Assembly (NCBI RefSeq): GCF_003334815.1
Contig: NZ_QOWO01000024.1
Length of the DNA stretch: 64,000 nt
Origin: Escherichia coli
Lineage (GTDB): Bacteria; Pseudomonadota; Gammaproteobacteria; Enterobacterales; Enterobacteriaceae
Strand: one strand, 5' to 3'
A program made the position numbers and the translations under genes. The notes beneath the pieces were generated by a model, which saw only the letters and a program-made list of their open reading frames with translations, had not been told where the DNA came from and ran no database searches. Shown here one piece after another: positions 11,215 to 37,992 of this stretch (the first letter of the stretch is position 1; each line of letters begins with the position of its first letter).

Positions 11215-12354
11215 TTATTGTCCTGCGAGTTGCTGAAGGGCTGTGATGACATGGTCGGCATCGGCGGTAGTCATATCCGGGAACAGCGGCAAAGAACAGA
11301 TGCGTTCGCTATTCCATTCGGTATTCGGTAACGACAGCGTGGGAAAACGCTCGCGATAATATTTTTGTGTGTGAGCGGCGCGGAAATGTAACCCGGTACC
11401 AATGCCTCTTTCTTTTAACGCTTCCATCAACGCATCGCGACTGATACCACAACGTTGTTCATCGACACGAATAATAAACAGATGCCAGGCGTGAACGTGC
11501 GGCCAGGCGGGAAGGCTTAATGGCTGAAAGGGGAGAGCTGCCAGTGCTTGCTGATATTGCTGGGCAATTTCGCGCCGACGGGTGTTGAGGTGCTCTAATT
11601 TGACTAACTGTGTCAGGGCAATCGCGGCGTTAATATCGGTCAGATTGTACTTATAGCCCGGTGTTAAGACTTCAGCCTGCGGTGCACGGCCCCAGGTTTG
11701 TCTGTCATAGGCATCGACACCCAGACCGTGAAATTTCAGCATCCGTAGCTGGCGGGCAAGGTTTTCATTATCAGTTACAATCAGGCCACCTTCAGCACAG
11801 GTAATATTTTTAATGGCATGAAATGAAAAAATAGCGGTACCTTTTGCGCCAATATGTCGCCCTTTGTAATACGTACCGACGGCATGGGCAGCATCTTCGA
11901 TAACTGCGATGCCGTAACGTTCGCCAATGGCGCGAATGGCGTCAATATCTGCTGGCGCACCGGCATAATGCACCGGAATGATGGCTTTAGTGCGTGGCGT
12001 AATGGCTGACTCGATAGCTTCAGGCGTGACCATCAGCGTATCGCGGTCGACATCCACCATTACCGGCGTTGCACCCAACAAGGAAATCATATTGAGGGTT
12101 GAAACCCAGGTCAGGGAAGGCGTAATCACTTCATCGCCCTTGCCAATTTTCAACGCCATTAGCGTGATATGCATTCCGGCGGTGGCTGAACTGACCGCGA
12201 TGGCATGCTGATTTCCCGTCAACTGGCAAAAAGCTTGCTCAAGCGCCTGATTCTTCGGACCGGTTGTGATCCAACCGGATTCGAGAACCTCTTTAACTGC
12301 AGCGAGTTCCTCCACGCCCATTGCTGGTCGCGAAAAAGGCAAAAATTCTGACAT
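11215..12354 (-). CDS. arnB: UDP-4-amino-4-deoxy-L-arabinose--oxoglutarate aminotransferase (PLP-dependent, DegT family)
   Basis: Track ORF 11215-12387 (390 aa); start set at the ATG giving [13 protein letters not shown] (379 aa), which matches the ArnB N-terminus as I recall it; two alternative in-frame ATGs lie upstream. Confidence 0.9.
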
Positions 12355-12452
12355 TGCTTTTCCTTCCGCCATTGAATACCTGTCCACTTATATTTGCTAT
12401 AAAGAGTGTTGTGTATATTTTGCCATTTGGAGCGAAATTTTAAGGATAGAAT

Positions 12453-12469
12453 ATTAACTTAACCTTAAG
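12453..12469 (-). promoter_or_regulatory. PmrA/BasR box in the arnB promoter
   Basis: Minus strand reads CTTAAG-gttaa-GTTAAT (YTTAAK-N5-YTTAAK direct repeat), about 100 bp upstream of the arnB start, in the arnB/ais divergent intergenic region. Confidence 0.7.
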
Positions 12470-12661
12470 AAACTAATATTAGACGTAAATATTGAAATTT
12501 TTATATTTTTTCTTATTTAGGCTTTGCATTTGGCAAAATTTTGAGGCATTTTGCCGACATCGTAGGATTTTTAATATTACACCAACTGCGAATTATCGCC
12601 AGAAATGTAGCTCAATTTCACGGTAATTGTCTGGTTGCGCTTGTCTATAGGTGGAGTTTAC

Positions 12662-13264
12662 GTGTTAGCTTTTTGCCGCTCTTCGTTGAAGTCAAAAAAA
12701 TATATCATCATTTTACTGGCGCTCGCTGCAATTGCCGGACTGGGTACTCATGCCGCCTGGAGTAGCAATGGTTTGCCACGTATCGACAATAAAACACTGG
12801 CCAGACTGGCACAGCAGCACCCGGTTGTCGTTTTGTTTCGTCATGCTGAACGTTGCGACCGTTCAACCAATCAATGCTTGTCAGATAAAACAGGTATTAC
12901 GGTTAAAGGTACCCAGGATGCCCGTGAACTGGGCAACGCTTTTAGTGCTGATATCCCTGATTTCGATCTTTATTCCAGTAATACCGTCCGGACCATTCAG
13001 TCGGCTACCTGGTTTTCAGCGGGTAAAAAATTGACGGTAGATAAACGACTTCTTCAGTGCGGTAATGAGATTTATAGTGCAATTAAGGACTTACAAAGCA
13101 AAGCGCCTGATAAAAATATCGTTATTTTCACCCATAATCATTGCCTGACATATATTGCTAAAGATAAGCGTGACGCGACATTTAAACCTGATTATCTGGA
13201 TGGTTTAGTCATGCATGTGGAAAAAGGCAAAGTTTATCTGGATGGGGAATTCGTTAACCACTAA
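12662..13264 (+). CDS. ais: Lipopolysaccharide core heptose(II)-phosphate phosphatase Ais (histidine phosphatase family)
   Basis: RHAER histidine-phosphatase motif and signal peptide; start set at in-frame GTG 12662 to give the 200-aa MLAFCRSS... form (track ORF begins at ATG 12635); divergent from arnB. Confidence 0.85.
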
Positions 13265-13302: not shown

Positions 13303-13728
13303 TTACAGAAGACCTTTCAAACGTAACGTTTTTCGGGTGGCGACATTCAAATCATAATGCACCAGATCTTCAGGTTTTACCCACGCGTAGTCCTGAAACT
13401 CTTCGTTTATTTTCACTTCTCGGTTGGCAGAAACGCAGTCAAAAATCAGGTAAATCATATAAATCTCTTCCTTGCGACCATCTGCATACGTCTTGGTGCG
13501 AATATCATCGCTGAAGGTCCACGGCGTGATTTCTGTCAAAAGCAGCTGTTCTCCCAGTTCTTCGCGAATTTCGCGGCGTAGTGCCTCTTCAATTCGTTCG
13601 CCAGGCTCCACGCCGCCACCCGAAATCGCCCATTGACCGGGGAAAACGCCGCGATCGTCGGCCATTTTACACAGCAAATAAGCACCATCATTTTGAATCA
13701 AAGGGCATACAATAGTCCGTTGTCGCAC
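13303..13728 (-). CDS. nudI: Nudix hydrolase (pyrimidine deoxynucleoside triphosphate diphosphatase)
   Basis: 141 aa with Nudix box [24 protein letters not shown]. Confidence 0.9.
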
Positions 13729-14006
13729 AGGGATATTCCTTATAAATAAAAAGAAACCATGAGAATACGGTAACTCACAAATATGTGAAAGTGACAGTAA
13801 TCTCTTTTGCGATGATAACTGTACTTATTATTATTTTTGTGTGTATCGATAAAGTGTGTTTATTTTTTCGGCATTTAATTATTTAAGAAGTATTTAGTTA
13901 CAATAAGTGACTAGATCCTTTTTTTCGCTCATTGAATCCTCTGTGCCAGGCAGTACAATCCCGCAGCTTTGGGAATTTTGATTAATTGCTTGTGGGAAAG
14001 GGGATA

Positions 14007-14549
14007 ATGAAAAAAATTGCGCTAGCAGGTCTGGCCGGAATGCTGTTGGTTTCTGCATCGGTCAATGCAATGAGCATCAGCGGTCAGGCGGGTAAAGAAT
14101 ACACCAATATTGGTGTCGGTTTTGGGACTGAAACGACGGGCCTGGCGTTAAGCGGTAACTGGACACATAACGACGACGACGGTGATGTCGCTGGCGTGGG
14201 GCTGGGGTTGAATCTGCCTCTCGGGCCGTTAATGGCGACCGTTGGCGGAAAAGGCGTTTACACCAACCCGAATTACGGCGATGAAGGTTATGCCGCAGCG
14301 GTAGGAGGTGGTTTGCAGTGGAAAATTGGCAACAGCTTCCGTTTGTTTGGCGAGTATTACTACTCTCCGGATTCGCTCTCCAGCGGTATTCAAAGTTATG
14401 AAGAAGCGAATGCTGGCGCGCGTTACACCATTATGCGTCCAGTCAGTATTGAGGCGGGTTATCGCTACCTGAATCTGTCGGGTAAAGACGGTAACCGCGA
14501 CAACGCCGTGGCTGACGGCCCGTATGTTGGGGTTAACGCCAGTTTCTGA
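14007..14549 (+). CDS. yfaZ: Putative outer-membrane protein YfaZ
   Basis: Start set at MKKIALAGLAGMLLVSASVNA (signal peptide) giving 180 aa; Gly/aromatic-rich beta-strand pattern ending ...GVNASF. Confidence 0.85.
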   Translation: MKKIALAGLAGMLLVSASVNAMSISGQAGKEYTNIGVGFGTETTGLALSGNWTHNDDDGDVAGVGLGLNLPLGPLMATVGGKGVYTNPNYGDEGYAAAVGGGLQWKIGNSFRLFGEYYYSPDSLSSGIQSYEEANAGARYTIMRPVSIEAGYRYLNLSGKDGNRDNAVADGPYVGVNASF

Positions 14550-21570: not shown

Positions 21571-25635
<4,065 letters not shown>

Positions 25636-25781
25636 TGTTATCCCTCTGAAGTTCGTTTTTTACCATTTAGCCATAGTAAAAACATGAATTGTTTGATTTC
25701 GCGCATATTCGCTCATAATTCGAAAGTGAAACGTGATTTCATGCGTCATTTTGAACATTTTGTAAATCTTATTTAATAATG

Positions 25782-25797
25782 TGTGCGGCAATTCACA
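25782..25797. promoter_or_regulatory. CRP-binding site in the glpTQ / glpACB divergent control region
   Basis: TGTGC-ggcaat-TCACA matches the CRP consensus TGTGA-N6-TCACA with one mismatch, inside the 272-bp AT-rich region between glpA and glpT. Confidence 0.6.
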
Positions 25798-25907
25798 TTT
25801 AATTTATGAATGTTTTCTTAACATCGCGGCAACTCAAGAAACGGCAGGTTCTCTCACTGAATCAGGCTGTTAATCATAAATAAGACCACGGGCCACGGAG
25901 GCTATCA

Positions 25908-27266
25908 ATGTTGAGTATTTTTAAACCAGCGCCACACAAAGCGCGCTTACCTGCCGCGGAGATCGATCCGACTTATCGTCGATTGCGCTGGCAAATTTTC
26001 CTGGGGATATTCTTTGGCTATGCGGCTTACTATTTGGTTCGTAAGAACTTTGCGCTTGCTATGCCTTATCTGGTTGAGCAGGGATTCTCACGCGGTGATT
26101 TAGGTTTTGCCCTTTCGGGGATCTCGATTGCTTATGGATTTTCGAAATTCATCATGGGTTCGGTATCGGATCGCTCGAATCCGCGCGTTTTCCTGCCCGC
26201 AGGTTTGATTCTGGCGGCGGCAGTGATGTTGTTTATGGGCTTTGTGCCATGGGCGACGTCGAGCATTGCGGTGATGTTTGTACTGTTGTTCCTCTGCGGT
26301 TGGTTCCAGGGGATGGGGTGGCCGCCGTGTGGTCGTACTATGGTGCACTGGTGGTCGCAGAAAGAACGTGGCGGCATTGTGTCAGTGTGGAACTGTGCGC
26401 ACAACGTCGGTGGTGGTATTCCGCCGCTGCTGTTCCTGCTGGGGATGGCCTGGTTCAATGACTGGCATGCGGCGCTCTATATGCCTGCTTTCTGCGCCAT
26501 TCTGGTGGCATTATTCGCCTTTGCGATGATGCGCGATACCCCGCAATCCTGTGGCTTGCCGCCGATCGAAGAGTACAAAAATGATTATCCGGACGACTAT
26601 AACGAAAAAGCGGAACAGGAGCTGACGGCGAAGCAAATCTTCATGCAGTACGTACTGCCGAACAAACTGCTGTGGTATATCGCCATCGCCAACGTGTTCG
26701 TTTATCTGCTGCGTTACGGCATCCTCGACTGGTCACCGACTTATCTGAAAGAGGTTAAGCATTTCGCGCTAGATAAATCCTCCTGGGCCTACTTCCTTTA
26801 TGAATATGCAGGTATTCCGGGCACTCTGCTGTGCGGCTGGATGTCGGATAAAGTCTTCCGTGGCAACCGTGGGGCAACCGGCGTTTTCTTTATGACACTG
26901 GTGACCATCGCGACTATCGTTTACTGGATGAACCCGGCAGGTAACCCAACCGTCGATATGATTTGTATGATTGTTATCGGCTTCCTGATCTACGGTCCTG
27001 TGATGCTGATCGGTCTGCATGCGCTGGAACTGGCACCGAAAAAAGCGGCAGGTACGGCAGCGGGCTTTACCGGGCTGTTTGGTTACCTGGGCGGTTCGGT
27101 GGCGGCGAGCGCGATTGTTGGCTACACCGTGGACTTCTTCGGCTGGGATGGCGGCTTTATGGTAATGATTGGCGGCAGCATTCTGGCGGTTATCTTGTTG
27201 ATTGTTGTGATGATTGGCGAAAAACGTCGCCATGAACAATTACTGCAAGAACGCAACGGAGGCTAA
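25908..27266 (+). CDS. glpT: Glycerol-3-phosphate:phosphate antiporter (MFS)
   Basis: 452-aa 12-TM MFS protein; divergent from glpACB. Confidence 0.95.
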
Positions 27267-31131: not shown

Positions 31132-33417
31132 TCAGATCTTACATGCGCCGCTTTCGCAGCCATCGTCCTGGATTGACGGCACCAGATCGTCTTGTGCGTC
31201 TTCAGCGCCGTCACGGGTGTTCTGATAATACAGTGTTTTGACCCCGAATTTGTAGGCGGTGAGCAGGTCTTTCAGCAACTGCTGCATCGGCACTTTTCCT
31301 GACGGGAAGCGTGACGGATCGTAGTTGGTGTTGGCAGAGATCGACTGATCGATAAATTTCTGCATGATACCCACCAGTTGCAGATAACCATCGTTACCCG
31401 GCATTTCCCACAGCAGCTCATAGGCGTCGTGCAGGTGCTCGTAGTCCGGCACCACCTGGCGCAAAATACCGTCTTTCGACGCTTTGATGCTGACGTAACC
31501 GCGCGGCGGTTCAATACCGTTAGTGGCGTTAGAGATCTGCGAAGAAGTCTCGGACGGCATCAGAGCAGAAAGCGTGGAGTTACGCAGACCGTGCGTTTTG
31601 ATTGACTCACGCAGAGCTTCCCAGTCGTAATGCAGCGGCTCATTAGCGATGGTATCCAGATCTTTCTTATAGGTATCGATCGGCAGGATCCCTTTCGCGT
31701 AAGTGGTTTCGTTAAACCACGGGCACGCGCCTTGCTCTTTCGCCAGCTCATTAGAGGCTTTCAGCAGGTAATACTGAATGGCTTCGAAGGTTTTATGCGT
31801 CAGGTTGTTGGCGCTGCCGTCGGAGTAGCGTTTACCGTGCTTCGCCAGGTAGTAAGCGAAGTTGATCACACCAATACCCAGCGTACGACGACCCATCGCT
31901 CCACGTTTGGCGGCCGGGATCGGGTAATCCTGATAATCCAGCAGCGCGTCAAGTGCACGAACCGCCAGAATTGCCAGCTCTTCCAGTTCATCCAGGTTAT
32001 TAATTGCGCCCAGGTTGAAAGCAGACAGCGTACACAGCGCGATTTCACCGTTCTCGTCGTTGACGTCGTTCAGCGGTTTGGTCGGCAGGGCTATCTCCAG
32101 GCACAGGTTAGACTGACGCACTGGCGCGATGGCCGGATCAAACGGGCTATGGGTATTGCAGTGGTCAACGTTCTGAATATAGATACGACCGGTAGACGCA
32201 CGTTCCTGCATCATCAGCGAGAACAGCTCAACGGCTTTCACACGCTGCTTGCGGATGCTGTCGTCTTTCTCATATTTGGTATACAGACGTTCAAACTCTT
32301 CCTGATCGGCGAAGAACGCGTCGTACAGCCCCGGTACGTCGGACGGGCTGAACAGGGTGATATCTTCACCTTTCAGCAGACGGGTATACATCAGTTTGTT
32401 GATTTGTACCCCGTAGTCCATATGACGCACGCGGTTGCCTTCCACACCACGGTTGTTTTTCAACACCAGCAGGCTTTCCACTTCCAGATGCCACATCGGG
32501 TAGAACAGCGTTGCCGCACCGCCGCGCACACCGCCCTGAGAGCAGGATTTCACCGCTGTCTGGAAATGTTTGTAGAACGGAATGCAGCCGGTATGGAACG
32601 CTTCACCACCGCGAATCGGGCTACCCAGCGCACGAATACGCCCGGCGTTGATGCCGATCCCGGCACGCTGGGAAACGTATTTAACAATCGCGCTGGAGGT
32701 GGCGTTGATGGAATCCAGGCTGTCACCGCACTCGATCAGTACGCAGGAGCTGAACTGACGAGTCGGGGTACGCACGCCGGACATGATTGGCGTCGGCAGC
32801 GAAATTTTAAATGTGGAAACCGCGTCGTAAAAACGCTTCACATATTGCAGGCGCGTTTCACGCGGGTAGTTCGAGAACAAGCACGCGGCAACTAGAATAT
32901 AAAGGAACTGGGCGCTCTCATAGATTTCGCCGGTCACGCGGTTCTGTACCAGATATTTGCCTTCCAGCTGCTTAACGGCAGCATAAGAGAAGGTCATATC
33001 ACGGTCGTGATCGATAAAGGTGTCCATCTGCTTGAACTCTTCTTCCGTGTAGTCTTCCAGCAGATGATTATCGTATTTGCCCATCTCGACCATTTTCACC
33101 ACGTGGTCGTACAGCGCAGGCGGCTCAAACTGGCCGTAGGCTTTTTTACGCAGGTGGAAGATCGCTAGGCGCGCGGCGAGATACTGATAATCCGGCGCAT
33201 CACGGGAGATCAGGTCTGCGGCAGCCTTGATAATGGTTTCGTGGATGTCAGAGGTCTTGATACCGTCATAAAACTGAATGTGGGAGCGCAGCTCGACCTG
33301 GGAAATCGAAACGTTATGCAGTCCTTCTGCCGCCCAATCCAGAACGCGATGGATTTTGTCGAGATTGATGCGCTCTGTGCTACCGTCGCGCTTTGTCACC
33401 AGCAGATTCTGATTCAT
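31132..33417 (-). CDS. nrdA: Class Ia ribonucleotide reductase alpha subunit (R1)
   Basis: 761 aa; N-terminal ATP-cone ([26 protein letters not shown]), C-terminal catalytic domain. Confidence 0.97.
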
Positions 33418-33492
33418 GTATGTCGTACCTGTTTTTGGAATTCTTTCCGCAATAGTTTCATGCAGACTACCTGTAGTACGGGAAGCTGCTTA

Positions 33493-33541
33493 GAACACTA
33501 TATATAGGGGGTATGTTTGGGATTCACTGCAAGATAGTGTG
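33493..33541. promoter_or_regulatory. Two NrdR boxes in the nrdAB promoter region
   Basis: AACACTATATATAGGG (33493-33509) and CACTGCAAGATAGTGTG (33525-33541), both close to the palindromic NrdR consensus acacTATATATAgtgt, with centres about 32 bp apart. Confidence 0.7.
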
Positions 33542-33570
33542 AAAATGACCCTCTTGCAAGTGCATAACTT

Positions 33571-33579
33571 TGTGGATAA
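33571..33579 (-). promoter_or_regulatory. DnaA box upstream of nrdAB
   Basis: Plus strand TGTGGATAA is the reverse complement of the DnaA box consensus TTATCCACA. Confidence 0.65.
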
Positions 33580-34112
33580 CTCAGGAAGGAAAAAGTGGCT
33601 TTCGCGCACCTTAGGTCAGACAAGGTGTCCGGGAAAGTCAATGGGAAGAGAAAAATTTGTTAAAAATAACTGTTCGGCGATTTCTTGAACGGCATAATAG
33701 GTTAGATAAATTGATATAGATGGTTTATTAATCTTTTTGCTAATGATTGCAAAAATTGATCTAAGCACGAGTCATCACATAATCTGATGTATCAGTTGTG
33801 GTCAATATATAAGCGAATGTAAGAGATTGTTGATGGCGAAATGGTTGTTTTCTATTCGGTTATTGTTAAATGCTAAGCCATTTTGTTAATTTACCTTATA
33901 TTATAAGAAAATTATTCATGACTTTAATTTAGTTTAAATATAACTGATATCCCTGAAGGTTATTAACTTGAATTATGACGCACTGATATTATTCATCAAA
34001 TAATAACAAAATAGCCATTGCACCGGGTTGAACAATTTACAAAAGAAAGATATTCCATATCGTATAATGCGATTAAATACGCCGTCTTATAGAAAATGAT
34101 GGTTAGATTAAT

Positions 34113-37100
34113 ATGCGGATTATCTTTCTACGCAAGGAGTATTTATCTTTACTCCCGTCAATGATTGCATCTCTTTTCTCTGCTAACGGTGTCGCGGCGG
34201 TCACTGATTCATGCCAGGGATATGATGTCAAAGCGAGTTGTCAGGCCAGCAGGCAAAGCCTTTCAGGCATTACGCAGGACTGGAGTATCGCTGATGGGCA
34301 ATGGCTGGTTTTTTCGGATATGACCAATAACGCCAGCGGTGGGGCCGTATTTTTGCAACAAGGAGCGGAATTTTCACTATTACCAGAAAATGAAACTGGA
34401 ATGACTCTGTTTGCCAATAACACCGTTACAGGAGAATATAATAACGGCGGGGCCATATTTGCTAAAGAAAACTCAACGCTGAATCTTACTGATGTTATTT
34501 TTTCCGGTAACGTCGCAGGCGGCTATGGTGGCGCAATCTATTCTTCTGGTACTAACGATACTGGTGCCGTCGATTTACGTGTCACTAACGCCATGTTTCG
34601 CAATAACATCGCTAATGATGGCAAAGGTGGCGCAATTTATACCATTAATAATGACGTTTATTTAAGTGATGTTATTTTTGATAACAACCAGGCATATACA
34701 TCAACAAGTTACAGTGATGGCGATGGCGGGGCAATCGATGTTACCGATAATAATAGCGACAGCAAGCATCCTTCAGGTTATACGATAGTAAATAACACTG
34801 CCTTTACAAATAACACTGCCGAAGGTTATGGCGGGGCGATATATACCAATAGCGTGACGGCTCCCTATCTTATTGATATTTCTGTTGATGACAGCTACAG
34901 CCAGAACGGAGGCGTGTTAGTCGATGAGAACAATAGCGCAGCAGGCTATGGAGATGGTCCTTCCTCTGCGGCGGGTGGCTTTATGTATCTCGGCTTAAGT
35001 GAAGTTACCTTTGATATTGCCGACGGAAAAACGCTGGTTATTGGCAATACAGAGAATGACGGAGCTGTTGACTCTATTGCTGGTACCGGGTTAATCACCA
35101 AAACAGGTTCCGGCGATCTGGTACTTAATGCAGATAACAATGACTTTACTGGTGAGATGCAGATTGAAAACGGTGAAGTTACCCTGGGCCGCAGCAACTC
35201 CCTGATGAATGTCGGCGATACGCATTGCCAGGACGATCCGCAAGACTGCTACGGTCTGACGATAGGGAGTATTGATCAGTATCAGAATCAGGCTGAGCTA
35301 AACGTTGGCTCGACCCAACAAACTTTTGTGCACGCATTGACGGGCTTTCAGAATGGCACTTTAAATATCGATGCTGGTGGCAACGTTACTGTTAATCAGG
35401 GCAGTTTTGCTGGCATCATCGAAGGTGCTGGTCAGCTCACCATTGCGCAAAACGGCAGCTACGTGCTGGCAGGGGCGCAGTCGATGGCGCTAACCGGCGA
35501 TATAGTCGTTGATGATGGTGCGGTGCTTTCGCTGGAAGGCGACGCGGCAGATCTTACCGCTCTCCAGGACGATCCGCAGTCGATCGTGTTAAACGGCGGT
35601 GTGCTCGATCTCTCTGATTTCTCCACCTGGCAGAGCGGCACATCATACAACGATGGCCTTGAAGTCAGTGGCAGCAGCGGAACGGTTATCGGCAGTCAGG
35701 ATGTGGTAGATCTTGCAGGTGGCGACAATTTGCATATCGGCGGCGACGGGAAAGATGGCGTCTACGTGGTGGTCGATGCGAGCGACGGGCAGGTAAGTCT
35801 GGCAAACAATAATAGTTATTTGGGCACAACACAAATCGCCTCCGGTACGCTGATGGTGAGCGACAACTCGCAGCTTGGAGATACCCACTATAACCGCCAG
35901 GTTATCTTTACCGATAAGCAACAAGAAAGCGTGATGGAGATTACCTCCGACGTTGACACGCGTTCAGATGCGGCAGGCCACGGACGTGATATTGAAATGC
36001 GCGCCGACGGTGAAGTGGCAGTTGATGCGGGGGTAGACACGCAGTGGGGCGCACTGATGGCTGACAGCAGCGGGCAGCATCAGGATGAGGGTAGCACATT
36101 GACTAAAACGGGGGCTGGTACACTGGAGCTGACCGCCAGCGGTACAACGCAGTCGGCGGTACGTGTCGAAGAAGGCACCCTGAAAGGTGATGTTGCTGAT
36201 ATCCTTCCTTATGCTTCGTCACTGTGGGTTGGTGATGGGGCAACGTTCGTTACTGGCGCGGATCAGGATATTCAGTCAATTGATGCTATTTCCAGCGGCA
36301 CTATCGACATCAGCGATGGTACGGTTTTGCGCCTGACCGGGCAGGATACTTCCGTCGCCCTTAATGCCTCACTATTTAACGGCGATGGGACGCTGGTGAA
36401 TGCCACCGATGGTGTGACGTTGACAGGTGAGCTTAATACCAACCTTGAAACTGACAGCCTGACTTATCTTTCCAACGTGACGGTTAATGGCAATCTGACC
36501 AATACGTCCGGTGCGGTTAGCCTGCAAAATGGCGTCGCTGGCGATACGCTGACGGTAAACGGTGATTATACCGGCGGCGGTACGCTACTGCTCGATAGCG
36601 AATTAAACGGCGATGACTCGGTAAGCGATCAATTGGTGATGAACGGTAATACTGCTGGCAACACAACTGTGGTGGTTAACTCCATTACAGGGATTGGTGA
36701 GCCGACATCGACAGGCATTAAAGTGGTTGATTTCGCAGCTGATCCCACGCAGTTTCAAAACAATGCGCAGTTCAGTCTGGCAGGCAGCGGCTACGTCAAT
36801 ATGGGAGCGTATGACTACACGCTGGTGGAAGATAACAACGACTGGTATCTGCGATCGCAAGAAGTAACGCCGCCATCGCCACCTGATCCAGACCCGACTC
36901 CCGATCCTGATCCCACGCCGGATCCTGATCCAACACCCGACCCGGAACCTACGCCTGCTTACCAGCCGGTGTTGAATGCCAAAGTTGGCGGTTATCTCAA
37001 TAACCTGCGGGCGGCAAATCAGGCGTTTATGATGGAGCGACGCGATCACGCAGGTGGCGATGGTCAGACGCTGAATTTACGTGTTATCGGCGGAGATTAT

Positions 37101-37865
37101 CATTACACAGCAGCGGGGCAACTGGCTCAACATGAAGACACTTCTACGGTGCAACTTAGCGGCGATCTGTTTAGCGGGCGCTGGGGCACGGATGGCGAGT
37201 GGATGCTTGGGATTGTTGGTGGCTACAGCGATAACCAGGGCGACAGCCGCTCGAATATGACCGGAACTCGCGCCGATAACCAGAACCACGGTTATGCCGT
37301 TGGGCTGACATCAAGCTGGTTTCAGCACGGTAATCAGAAGCAAGGGGCCTGGCTGGATAGCTGGCTGCAATACGCGTGGTTTAGCAATGATGTTTCCGAA
37401 CAAGAAGATGGCACAGATCATTACCACTCGTCGGGGATTATCGCCTCGCTGGAGGCGGGGTATCAGTGGTTACCGGGGCGTGGTGTGGTGATTGAACCGC
37501 AGGCGCAGGTGATTTATCAGGGCGTGCAGCAGGATGATTTTACCGCCGCTAACCGTGCGCGCGTGTCACAATCGCAGGGTGATGATATTCAGACGCGGCT
37601 GGGTTTACACAGCGAATGGCGTACCGCTGTTCATGTCATACCAACATTAGATCTGAATTATTATCACGATCCCCATTCGACGGAAATTGAAGAGGATGGC
37701 AGCACTATCAGTGACGATGCGGTGAAGCAACGGGGTGAAATAAAAGTGGGAGTCACGGGCAATATCAGTCAGCGAGTGTCCCTGCGCGGCAGCGTGGCGT
37801 GGCAGAAAGGGAGTGATGATTTTGCCCAGACGGCAGGGTTTTTGTCGATGACGGTGAAATGGTAA
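34113..37865 (+). CDS. yfaL: Autotransporter adhesin YfaL (EhaC-like): repeat-rich passenger, Pro-rich linker, C-terminal beta-barrel
   Basis: 1250 aa; repeated GGAIY motifs in the passenger, a (PDPDPT)n linker, and a C-terminal translocator ending in an aromatic residue (VKW). Confidence 0.9.
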   Translation: MRIIFLRKEYLSLLPSMIASLFSANGVAAVTDSCQGYDVKASCQASRQSLSGITQDWSIADGQWLVFSDMTNNASGGAVFLQQGAEFSLLPENETGMTLFANNTVTGEYNNGGAIFAKENSTLNLTDVIFSGNVAGGYGGAIYSSGTNDTGAVDLRVTNAMFRNNIANDGKGGAIYTINNDVYLSDVIFDNNQAYTSTSYSDGDGGAIDVTDNNSDSKHPSGYTIVNNTAFTNNTAEGYGGAIYTNSVTAPYLIDISVDDSYSQNGGVLVDENNSAAGYGDGPSSAAGGFMYLGLSEVTFDIADGKTLVIGNTENDGAVDSIAGTGLITKTGSGDLVLNADNNDFTGEMQIENGEVTLGRSNSLMNVGDTHCQDDPQDCYGLTIGSIDQYQNQAELNVGSTQQTFVHALTGFQNGTLNIDAGGNVTVNQGSFAGIIEGAGQLTIAQNGSYVLAGAQSMALTGDIVVDDGAVLSLEGDAADLTALQDDPQSIVLNGGVLDLSDFSTWQSGTSYNDGLEVSGSSGTVIGSQDVVDLAGGDNLHIGGDGKDGVYVVVDASDGQVSLANNNSYLGTTQIASGTLMVSDNSQLGDTHYNRQVIFTDKQQESVMEITSDVDTRSDAAGHGRDIEMRADGEVAVDAGVDTQWGALMADSSGQHQDEGSTLTKTGAGTLELTASGTTQSAVRVEEGTLKGDVADILPYASSLWVGDGATFVTGADQDIQSIDAISSGTIDISDGTVLRLTGQDTSVALNASLFNGDGTLVNATDGVTLTGELNTNLETDSLTYLSNVTVNGNLTNTSGAVSLQNGVAGDTLTVNGDYTGGGTLLLDSELNGDDSVSDQLVMNGNTAGNTTVVVNSITGIGEPTSTGIKVVDFAADPTQFQNNAQFSLAGSGYVNMGAYDYTLVEDNNDWYLRSQEVTPPSPPDPDPTPDPDPTPDPDPTPDPEPTPAYQPVLNAKVGGYLNNLRAANQAFMMERRDHAGGDGQTLNLRVIGGDYHYTAAGQLAQHEDTSTVQLSGDLFSGRWGTDGEWMLGIVGGYSDNQGDSRSNMTGTRADNQNHGYAVGLTSSWFQHGNQKQGAWLDSWLQYAWFSNDVSEQEDGTDHYHSSGIIASLEAGYQWLPGRGVVIEPQAQVIYQGVQQDDFTAANRARVSQSQGDDIQTRLGLHSEWRTAVHVIPTLDLNYYHDPHSTEIEEDGSTISDDAVKQRGEIKVGVTGNISQRVSLRGSVAWQKGSDDFAQTAGFLSMTVKW
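36868..36960 (+). repeat. In-frame tandem 18-bp repeats encoding the (PDPDPT)n linker within yfaL
   Basis: ccgactcccgatcctgat / cccacgccggatcctgat / ccaacacccgacccggaa, translating to PPSPPDPDPTPDPDPTPDPDPTPDPEPTPA. Confidence 0.85.
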
Positions 37866-37879
37866 TCACTGTCTAGTCG

Positions 37880-37980
<101 letters not shown>

Positions 37981-37992
37981 CAAACATCAACC

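Follow-up and report, generated by a model that had tools for sequence, protein, structure and literature searches.

Why are nrdA and yfaL, two divergently transcribed genes of Escherichia coli, held apart by an unusually long and partly AT-rich spacer, and how much of that DNA serves either gene? We examined the spacer within a stretch of 64,000 nucleotides (the window in what follows). The window proves to be chromosomal DNA like that of E. coli K-12: a query of 951 bp spanning the spacer matches 5426 of 5426 complete E. coli genomes, with at least 80% of the query covered in 5424 of them and many matches at 100% identity. The flanking genes are

31132-33417, minus strand: nrdA, alpha subunit of class Ia ribonucleotide reductase (open reading frame, RefSeq annotation, NCBIfam NF006578 equivalog)
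34113-37865, plus strand: yfaL (ehaC), an autotransporter adhesin of the AIDA-I family (NCBIfam NF007285 equivalog)

NrdA scores 1644 bits against a cut-off of 813 for NF006578. YfaL matches its family, NF007285 (YfaL/EhaC), over the full length (2812 bits, cut-off 1459) and carries the TIGR01414 barrel domain at residues 807-1250, the C-terminal beta-barrel expected of an AIDA-I family member. With ATG starts at 33417 (minus strand) and 34113 (plus strand), the spacer spans 33418-34112, exactly 695 bp, so that the original prediction of a divergent nrdA/yfaL pair about 695 bp apart was exact in coordinates and in gene identities alike. It is the longest annotated spacer within the window, where the second longest measures 307 bp.

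We consider it very probable that the spacer is a composite, in which an ancestral nrdAB control region adjoins an AT-rich, H-NS-coated yfaL leader that was acquired together with yfaL. Anatomy, conservation and insertion are observations of our own, and for the binding of NrdR, DnaA, HusR and H-NS we draw on the literature. Note that the discovery value is small: this is a well-studied region of E. coli K-12, real but ordinary, where every element flagged at the outset has already been described and tested, and where the H-NS idea is already contained in published ChIP-chip compilations. What is gained is an explanation for the length of the spacer, namely a 4.2-kb insertion (yfaL plus leader) into an old ubiG-nrdA spacer, and a different perspective on ypaB, a small annotated open reading frame inside it.

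Regulatory sites upstream of nrdA

The nrdA-proximal part, from 33418 to ~33690, represents the ancestral nrdAB control region, built around a sigma-70 promoter (-35 TTGCAA, -10 TATCTT). This promoter is controlled in four ways, one of them being DnaA at a double box that abuts the -35 element; HusR binds two boxes located upstream of the DnaA boxes, and a conserved A/T-containing block is present upstream of the HusR boxes. The individual features are

33464-33479, minus strand: NrdR box 2, GTACTACAGGTAGTCT, which functions together with box 1, 31 bp away start to start
33495-33510, minus strand: NrdR box 1, CCCCTATATATAGTGT, a strong box with two mismatches to the consensus
33527-33542, minus strand: NrdR 'box 0', TCACACTATCTTGCAG, a classical but weak box that overlaps the -10 (sequence scan)
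33531-33536, minus strand: nrdA -10 hexamer TATCTT, read from the sequence and invariant in Yersinia, Serratia, Dickeya and other genomes
33554-33559, minus strand: nrdA -35 hexamer TTGCAA, read from the sequence, with a 17-bp spacer to the -10
33559-33579, minus strand: double DnaA box TTATCCACAaagTTATGCACT (sequence scan, tandem-repeat detection; published ChIP-seq)
33582-33597 and 33617-33632, unstranded: HusR (YnfL) boxes CAGGAAGGAAAAAGTG and CAGACAAGGTGTCCGG, respectively, taken from Table 1 of PMC12844172 and located in the window
33618-33690, minus strand: conserved upstream block of the nrdA control region, with 92% invariant columns across five yfaL-carrying genomes

From the position of the hexamers we infer that nrdA transcription starts at ~33524-33528. 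Around the -35, CACTTGC.A is kept in alignments across genomes with the upstream-box layout ('type U', see below).

The original prediction had placed two NrdR-box-like palindromes next to nrdA. Scanning the whole 64-kb window with the 16-bp palindrome acaCwAtATaTwGtgt as NrdR consensus, we find box 1 to be the sole match with two mismatches or fewer. It is flanked on either side by a weak box with six mismatches, one at 33464 (31 bp away, start to start) and one at 33527 (32 bp). Box 1 and either of these weak boxes form the only two NrdR pairs in the window at 31-32 bp, the start-to-start spacing of a tandem NrdR operator with its second box 15-16 bp away; the probability of such a pairing by chance is ~0.004 per flanking box. 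Conservation of the boxes in related genomes, whose absence had been named as a refutation, is borne out: box 1 is kept in alignments, and a scan of 74 related loci found it within four mismatches in 73.

NrdR binding to the two pairs has been measured on oligonucleotides that are identical to the window sequence (PMC12176259). Boxes 1 and 2 together are bound with a Kd of 113 nM in the presence of ATP and dATP, compared with a Kd above 6000 nM for boxes 0 and 1, the classical pair (PMC12176259). The two palindromes are thus present as predicted, but the one over the -10 binds very weakly, and the functional pair consists of box 1 and a third, downstream box (box 2). As an aside, the phylogroup B2 E. 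coli IHE3034 has lost 13 bp, GGAATTCTTTCCG, from the part of the nrdA leader that separates NrdR box 2 from the ribosome-binding region (equivalent to window 33437-33449).

A DnaA box near nrdA had also been predicted, and we find it as part of a double box: the perfect 9-mer TTATCCACA at 33571-33579 (minus strand) is accompanied by TTATGCACT at 33559-33567, 3 bp away and in the same orientation, as is characteristic of double DnaA boxes (a consensus 9-mer with a second box 2-3 bp off). A lone perfect DnaA box would not be significant, since ~0.5 are expected and two are present in the window; its weight comes from position and conservation rather than from count, the perfect box being invariant in all upstream-box genomes compared. 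Published DnaA ChIP-seq data place a peak over the double box gTTATCCACAaagTTATGCACTt, 14-fold over control (PMC11317965).

Further upstream, the conserved block contains the elements AAGAAATC...TTTTT...ATTGAC, common to all Enterobacteriaceae aligned, and it is at the far end of this block that homology to genomes without yfaL stops. According to a review, class Ia ribonucleotide reductase is activated by IciA, Fis and DnaA and repressed by H-NS and NrdR; no site positions are given there for Fis and IciA (PMC4009431). Our scan with a simple Fis consensus, itself uninformative, returned a single hit at 33800, no better than chance, and a search for repeats found only short chance-level families besides the tandem DnaA boxes. 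The nrdAB promoter region of E. coli K-12 is identical to that in the window, with the NrdR oligonucleotides (PMC12176259) and the double DnaA box (PMC11317965) agreeing letter for letter.

How representative is this arrangement? Across the Enterobacterales loci that we compared, two layouts are seen ~40-240 nt upstream of nrdA. The upstream-box layout has a perfect DnaA box ~70-80 bp upstream of NrdR box 1 and keeps CACTTGCAA and TATCTTG; it is shared by Escherichia, Pseudocitrobacter, Yersinia, Serratia, Dickeya, Edwardsiella, Brenneria, Rahnella and Leminorella. In the downstream-box layout, box 1 is followed immediately, in the leader, by an inverted DnaA-box pair (in most species both boxes are perfect), and the second NrdR box is on the upstream side of box 1. 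This organization is seen in Citrobacter, Klebsiella, Enterobacter, Kluyvera and Kosakonia, and Pantoea, Erwinia and Mixta are similar, often with a weaker second box. The nrdA regions of Citrobacter, Klebsiella, Enterobacter, Kluyvera and the Erwiniaceae share NrdR box 1 and the AAGAAATC...T-run...ATTGAC block with E. coli but, unlike E. coli, have no DnaA box upstream of the -35; they are also without yfaL and the AT-rich block, with the exception of strain RIT691 and its distant yfaL homologue.

Judged by these alignments, the layout in E. coli is atypical of its closest relatives. As it is not that of most other Enterobacteriaceae, caution is advisable: models of DnaA and NrdR action derived from E. 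coli may not transfer to Klebsiella, Enterobacter or Citrobacter. We did not find the contrast discussed in the literature consulted on this region, which was not searched for it specifically.

The same module is also found outside the chromosome:

33541-33672, unstranded: segment with a homologue, the 'nrdA-like promoter', in P1-family phages and phage-plasmids (sequence identity)

Over this segment, identity is 94.6% for P7 and SJ46 and 81.7% for P1, and phage copies as a whole span 77-95% identity to E. coli. The segment occurs at 235 places on plasmids of complete E. coli assemblies, and the one plasmid that we examined is P1-like. In P1 and P7 the shared stretch amounts to ~115-130 bp at 82-95% identity and includes the -35 along with the two DnaA boxes and the upstream block; similarity ends exactly at the -10, all NrdR boxes are missing, and the copy adjoins the late promoter of hot, a homologue of DNA polymerase III theta. 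Transfer by P1-family phages, in which this Escherichia-type module is present, is conceivable. We had considered this homology as a novelty and rejected it as such, given that P1 records already label an 'nrdA-like promoter' with a DnaA box (GenBank M95666; misc_feature in NC_005856).

An annotated reading frame across the nrdA promoter

The spacer had been described as non-coding. This label differs from the database annotation, in that RefSeq places a small gene inside the spacer, and it stands to the extent that we detect no protein-level constraint on that gene:

33545-33688, plus strand: ypaB, an annotated small open reading frame (47 aa), probably not protein-coding (RefSeq annotation)

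Imagine that ypaB were a true gene. The long spacer would then simply break down into 127 bp and 424 bp on either side of the gene, each of ordinary size. In most E. coli genomes ypaB is part of the RefSeq annotation, a related open reading frame, upfO, is annotated in phage P1, and RNA from the ypaB strand has been detected by RT-qPCR, with a HusR-dependent rise in stationary phase (PMC12844172). Such RNA is, however, no proof of a protein, and the pattern of change across relatives is not that of an intact coding sequence accumulating substitutions at third positions: variable sites are distributed 11/8/11 over the three codon positions, without a third-position excess; the frame is interrupted by a stop at codon 18 in E. 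albertii; CTG replaces the ATG start in the B2 strain IHE3034, where ypaB is not annotated; and the frame is shifted in the phage copies. Nor did a family search return a match for the protein.

Why, then, is the sequence conserved at all? The open reading frame runs across the nrdA -35, both DnaA boxes and the block conserved upstream of them, and this overlap accounts for its conservation. Targeting dCas9 to ypaB does cause a fitness defect, for which the authors gave the reason that ypaB contains the nrdA promoter (PMC6242692). Moreover, even a true ypaB would still leave 424 bp at 28% G+C to be explained. We therefore regard a genuine ypaB gene as a very unlikely reason for the long spacer; on the comparative evidence the reading frame is probably an annotation artefact, most likely a by-product of conserved regulatory DNA.

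AT-rich DNA and H-NS upstream of yfaL

The remaining part of the spacer has a different character:

33691-34112, plus strand: AT-rich region upstream of yfaL, published as an H-NS-bound 'promoter island' (~28% G+C, PMC3661553)
33756-33783, plus strand: candidate yfaL promoter TTGATC-16-CATAAT (promoter scan; same hexamers as in PMC3946193)

G+C content falls from 44% at 33418-33650 to 28% at 33651-34112. At 28.4%, compared with 51.7% for the window, the latter segment (462 bp) has the lowest value of all segments of this size. It holds 2.2 A/T tracts of at least four nucleotides per 100 bp versus 0.95 in the window, and TpA steps stand at 11.7 versus 4.4. The yfaL-proximal DNA is hence as strongly AT-rich and as well supplied with A/T tracts as had been claimed, with tracts and TpA steps two to three times commoner than in the window. 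The AT-rich region also shows an excess of promoter-like sites (nine, compared with 3.8±1.8 in shuffles). A curvature profile had been suggested as a further check; a simple test of AA/TT periodicity gave no peak at 10-11 bp and no phased A-tracts, which leaves intrinsic curvature without support from this test. Other stretches of low G+C content (32-37% over 300 bp) occur in the window at 12250-12750, 13650-14050 and 25600-25950, which by coordinate mapping should lie near pmrD-arnF, within arnT and in the rpnE-glpC spacer, respectively.

The proposal that the sequence upstream of yfaL is of the type bound by H-NS had been anticipated by published binding data. The promoter island 2342143_534 (yfaL/ypaB), which maps to approximately 33629-34162 of the window, is H-NS-bound 'according to all studies' (ChIP-chip by Grainger, Kahramanoglou and Oshima) and is classed as associated with foreign genes (PMC3661553). 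H-NS sites in the yfaL<>nrdA spacer are likewise indicated by a genomic SELEX study (PMC3946193). We find no difference between this DNA and the promoter islands of Panyukov and Ozoline (2013), in whose Table 1 it is listed: it shares with them an excess of promoter-like sites, a low G+C content and the proximity of an inserted gene. The high-affinity H-NS motif TCGATAAATT is not specifically enriched in the spacer, where we find one 9-of-10 match at 33703. It is not diagnostic here, because matches are spread across the window and the sole perfect one falls within nrdA.

What might H-NS do at this site? As AT-rich DNA of a foreign type, ~33691-34112 is coated by H-NS, and this coat most likely keeps yfaL, together with many spurious promoter-like sites, silent under laboratory conditions. 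The gene is called cryptic because biofilm and adhesion phenotypes of YfaL were obtained only when a constitutive promoter had been inserted before it (PMC3764049). We infer that H-NS occupancy is the cause of this crypticity. A rise in yfaL mRNA, or derepression, in an hns mutant was not found in the consulted papers that mention both yfaL and H-NS. GadE and GadX have been reported as regulators of yfaL (PMC4918353), so that H-NS is perhaps not the only control. In addition, the genomic SELEX study gives TTGATC-16-CATAAT as the yfaL promoter (PMC3946193). Some of the AT-rich DNA may represent an extended yfaL leader instead of a silencer.

One might also suppose that the AT-rich block encodes a small RNA or small protein that has escaped annotation, a scenario for which the density of promoter-like sites could be cited. 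Yet an Rfam scan of 32500-35000 (E-value up to 1) found nothing in the spacer, a scan for terminator-like sites found none, no open reading frame of 40 or more amino acids exists between 33770 and 34100, and merely 16-36% of alignment columns in the block are invariant. We regard such a product as extremely unlikely and return to H-NS-coated DNA belonging to yfaL as the preferred reading.

With 51% G+C for yfaL overall, only its 5' region looks compositionally foreign; GC3 is 0.52 in yfaL, 0.66 in nrdA and 0.63 in ubiG. In E. coli 23CRST009, IS1A is inserted into the AT-rich region ~50 bp upstream of yfaL, which in that strain is a pseudogene with an internal stop.

Origin of the long spacer

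To place the spacer in its wider context, one genome per species was scanned with NrdA residues 1-200, yielding 80 Enterobacterales loci (Salmonella is absent from this set). In about 70 of the 80 species, ubiG lies directly upstream of nrdA and in the same orientation. The intervening spacers, measured in 23 close relatives, are mostly ~340-400 bp long at ~40% G+C. By comparison, yfaL sits between ubiG and nrdA in just four of the 80 species: an Escherichia labelled E. coli, E. albertii, a Pseudocitrobacter MAG and strain RIT691. It is, in other words, a gene that relatives lack.

Alignment shows that homology to the ubiG-type spacers stops at ~33690. Just beyond the equivalent point, ubiG-type genomes have a hairpin, which we read as the ubiG terminator. 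Conservation changes along the spacer in a corresponding manner. Across the five yfaL-carrying genomes, 68-92% of columns are invariant throughout 33468-33667, falling to 46-56% in the flanking bins (33418-33467 and 33668-33717) and to only 16-36% beyond 33718, so that the AT-rich part is poorly conserved even among Escherichia. Wherever yfaL is missing, the AT-rich block is missing too. The limit of homology, the drop in conservation and the ubiG-nrdA arrangement together identify the spacer as a chimera of an old nrdA control region and a yfaL leader. The AT-rich part, ~33691-34112, entered a former ubiG-nrdA spacer of ~350 bp along with yfaL, and an insertion of the gene along with its AT-rich leader explains why the present spacer is so long.

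An alternative is that the AT-rich block mainly serves distal regulation of nrdAB, either activating or responsive to H-NS, rather than the silencing of yfaL. Passages in PMC4009431 (citing Cendra et al. 2013) and PMC12176259 list H-NS as a repressor of class Ia ribonucleotide reductase, and the block begins only ~135 bp upstream of the -35. Three observations argue against this model. First, the block is missing in ~70 species in which the nrdA control region is conserved. Second, it diverges fast among Escherichia, which the nrdA-proximal part does not. Third, it always accompanies yfaL. A main role in nrdAB regulation is therefore unlikely, although a secondary, lineage-specific effect of the block on nrdA is possible.

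Keeping to the composite spacer, with an acquired yfaL leader, one may ask how such an effect would have come about. It is conceivable, if somewhat doubtful, that H-NS repression of nrdAB is a lineage-specific by-product of the yfaL insertion in Escherichia, which would have kept or regained the upstream-box layout, the latter possibly moved by phages. If so, the insertion of yfaL brought H-NS-coated DNA to within ~135 bp of an essential gene's promoter, on its upstream side, and H-NS repression of nrdAB should be absent from Citrobacter, Klebsiella and Enterobacter, which have no yfaL.

Two further observations concern the insertion site. Enterobacteriaceae bacterium RIT691 carries its distant yfaL homologue (54% identity) at the same ubiG-nrdA site, in combination with DnaA boxes in the leader, which points either to more than one insertion event here or to an ancient one that was lost many times afterwards. 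Finally, the yfaL-ubiG spacer (window 37866-37992) contains, by eye, two inverted REP-like sequences (a BIME) adjoining the ubiG stop, and similar REP sequences are present in some ubiG-nrdA spacers of Citrobacter and Kluyvera.
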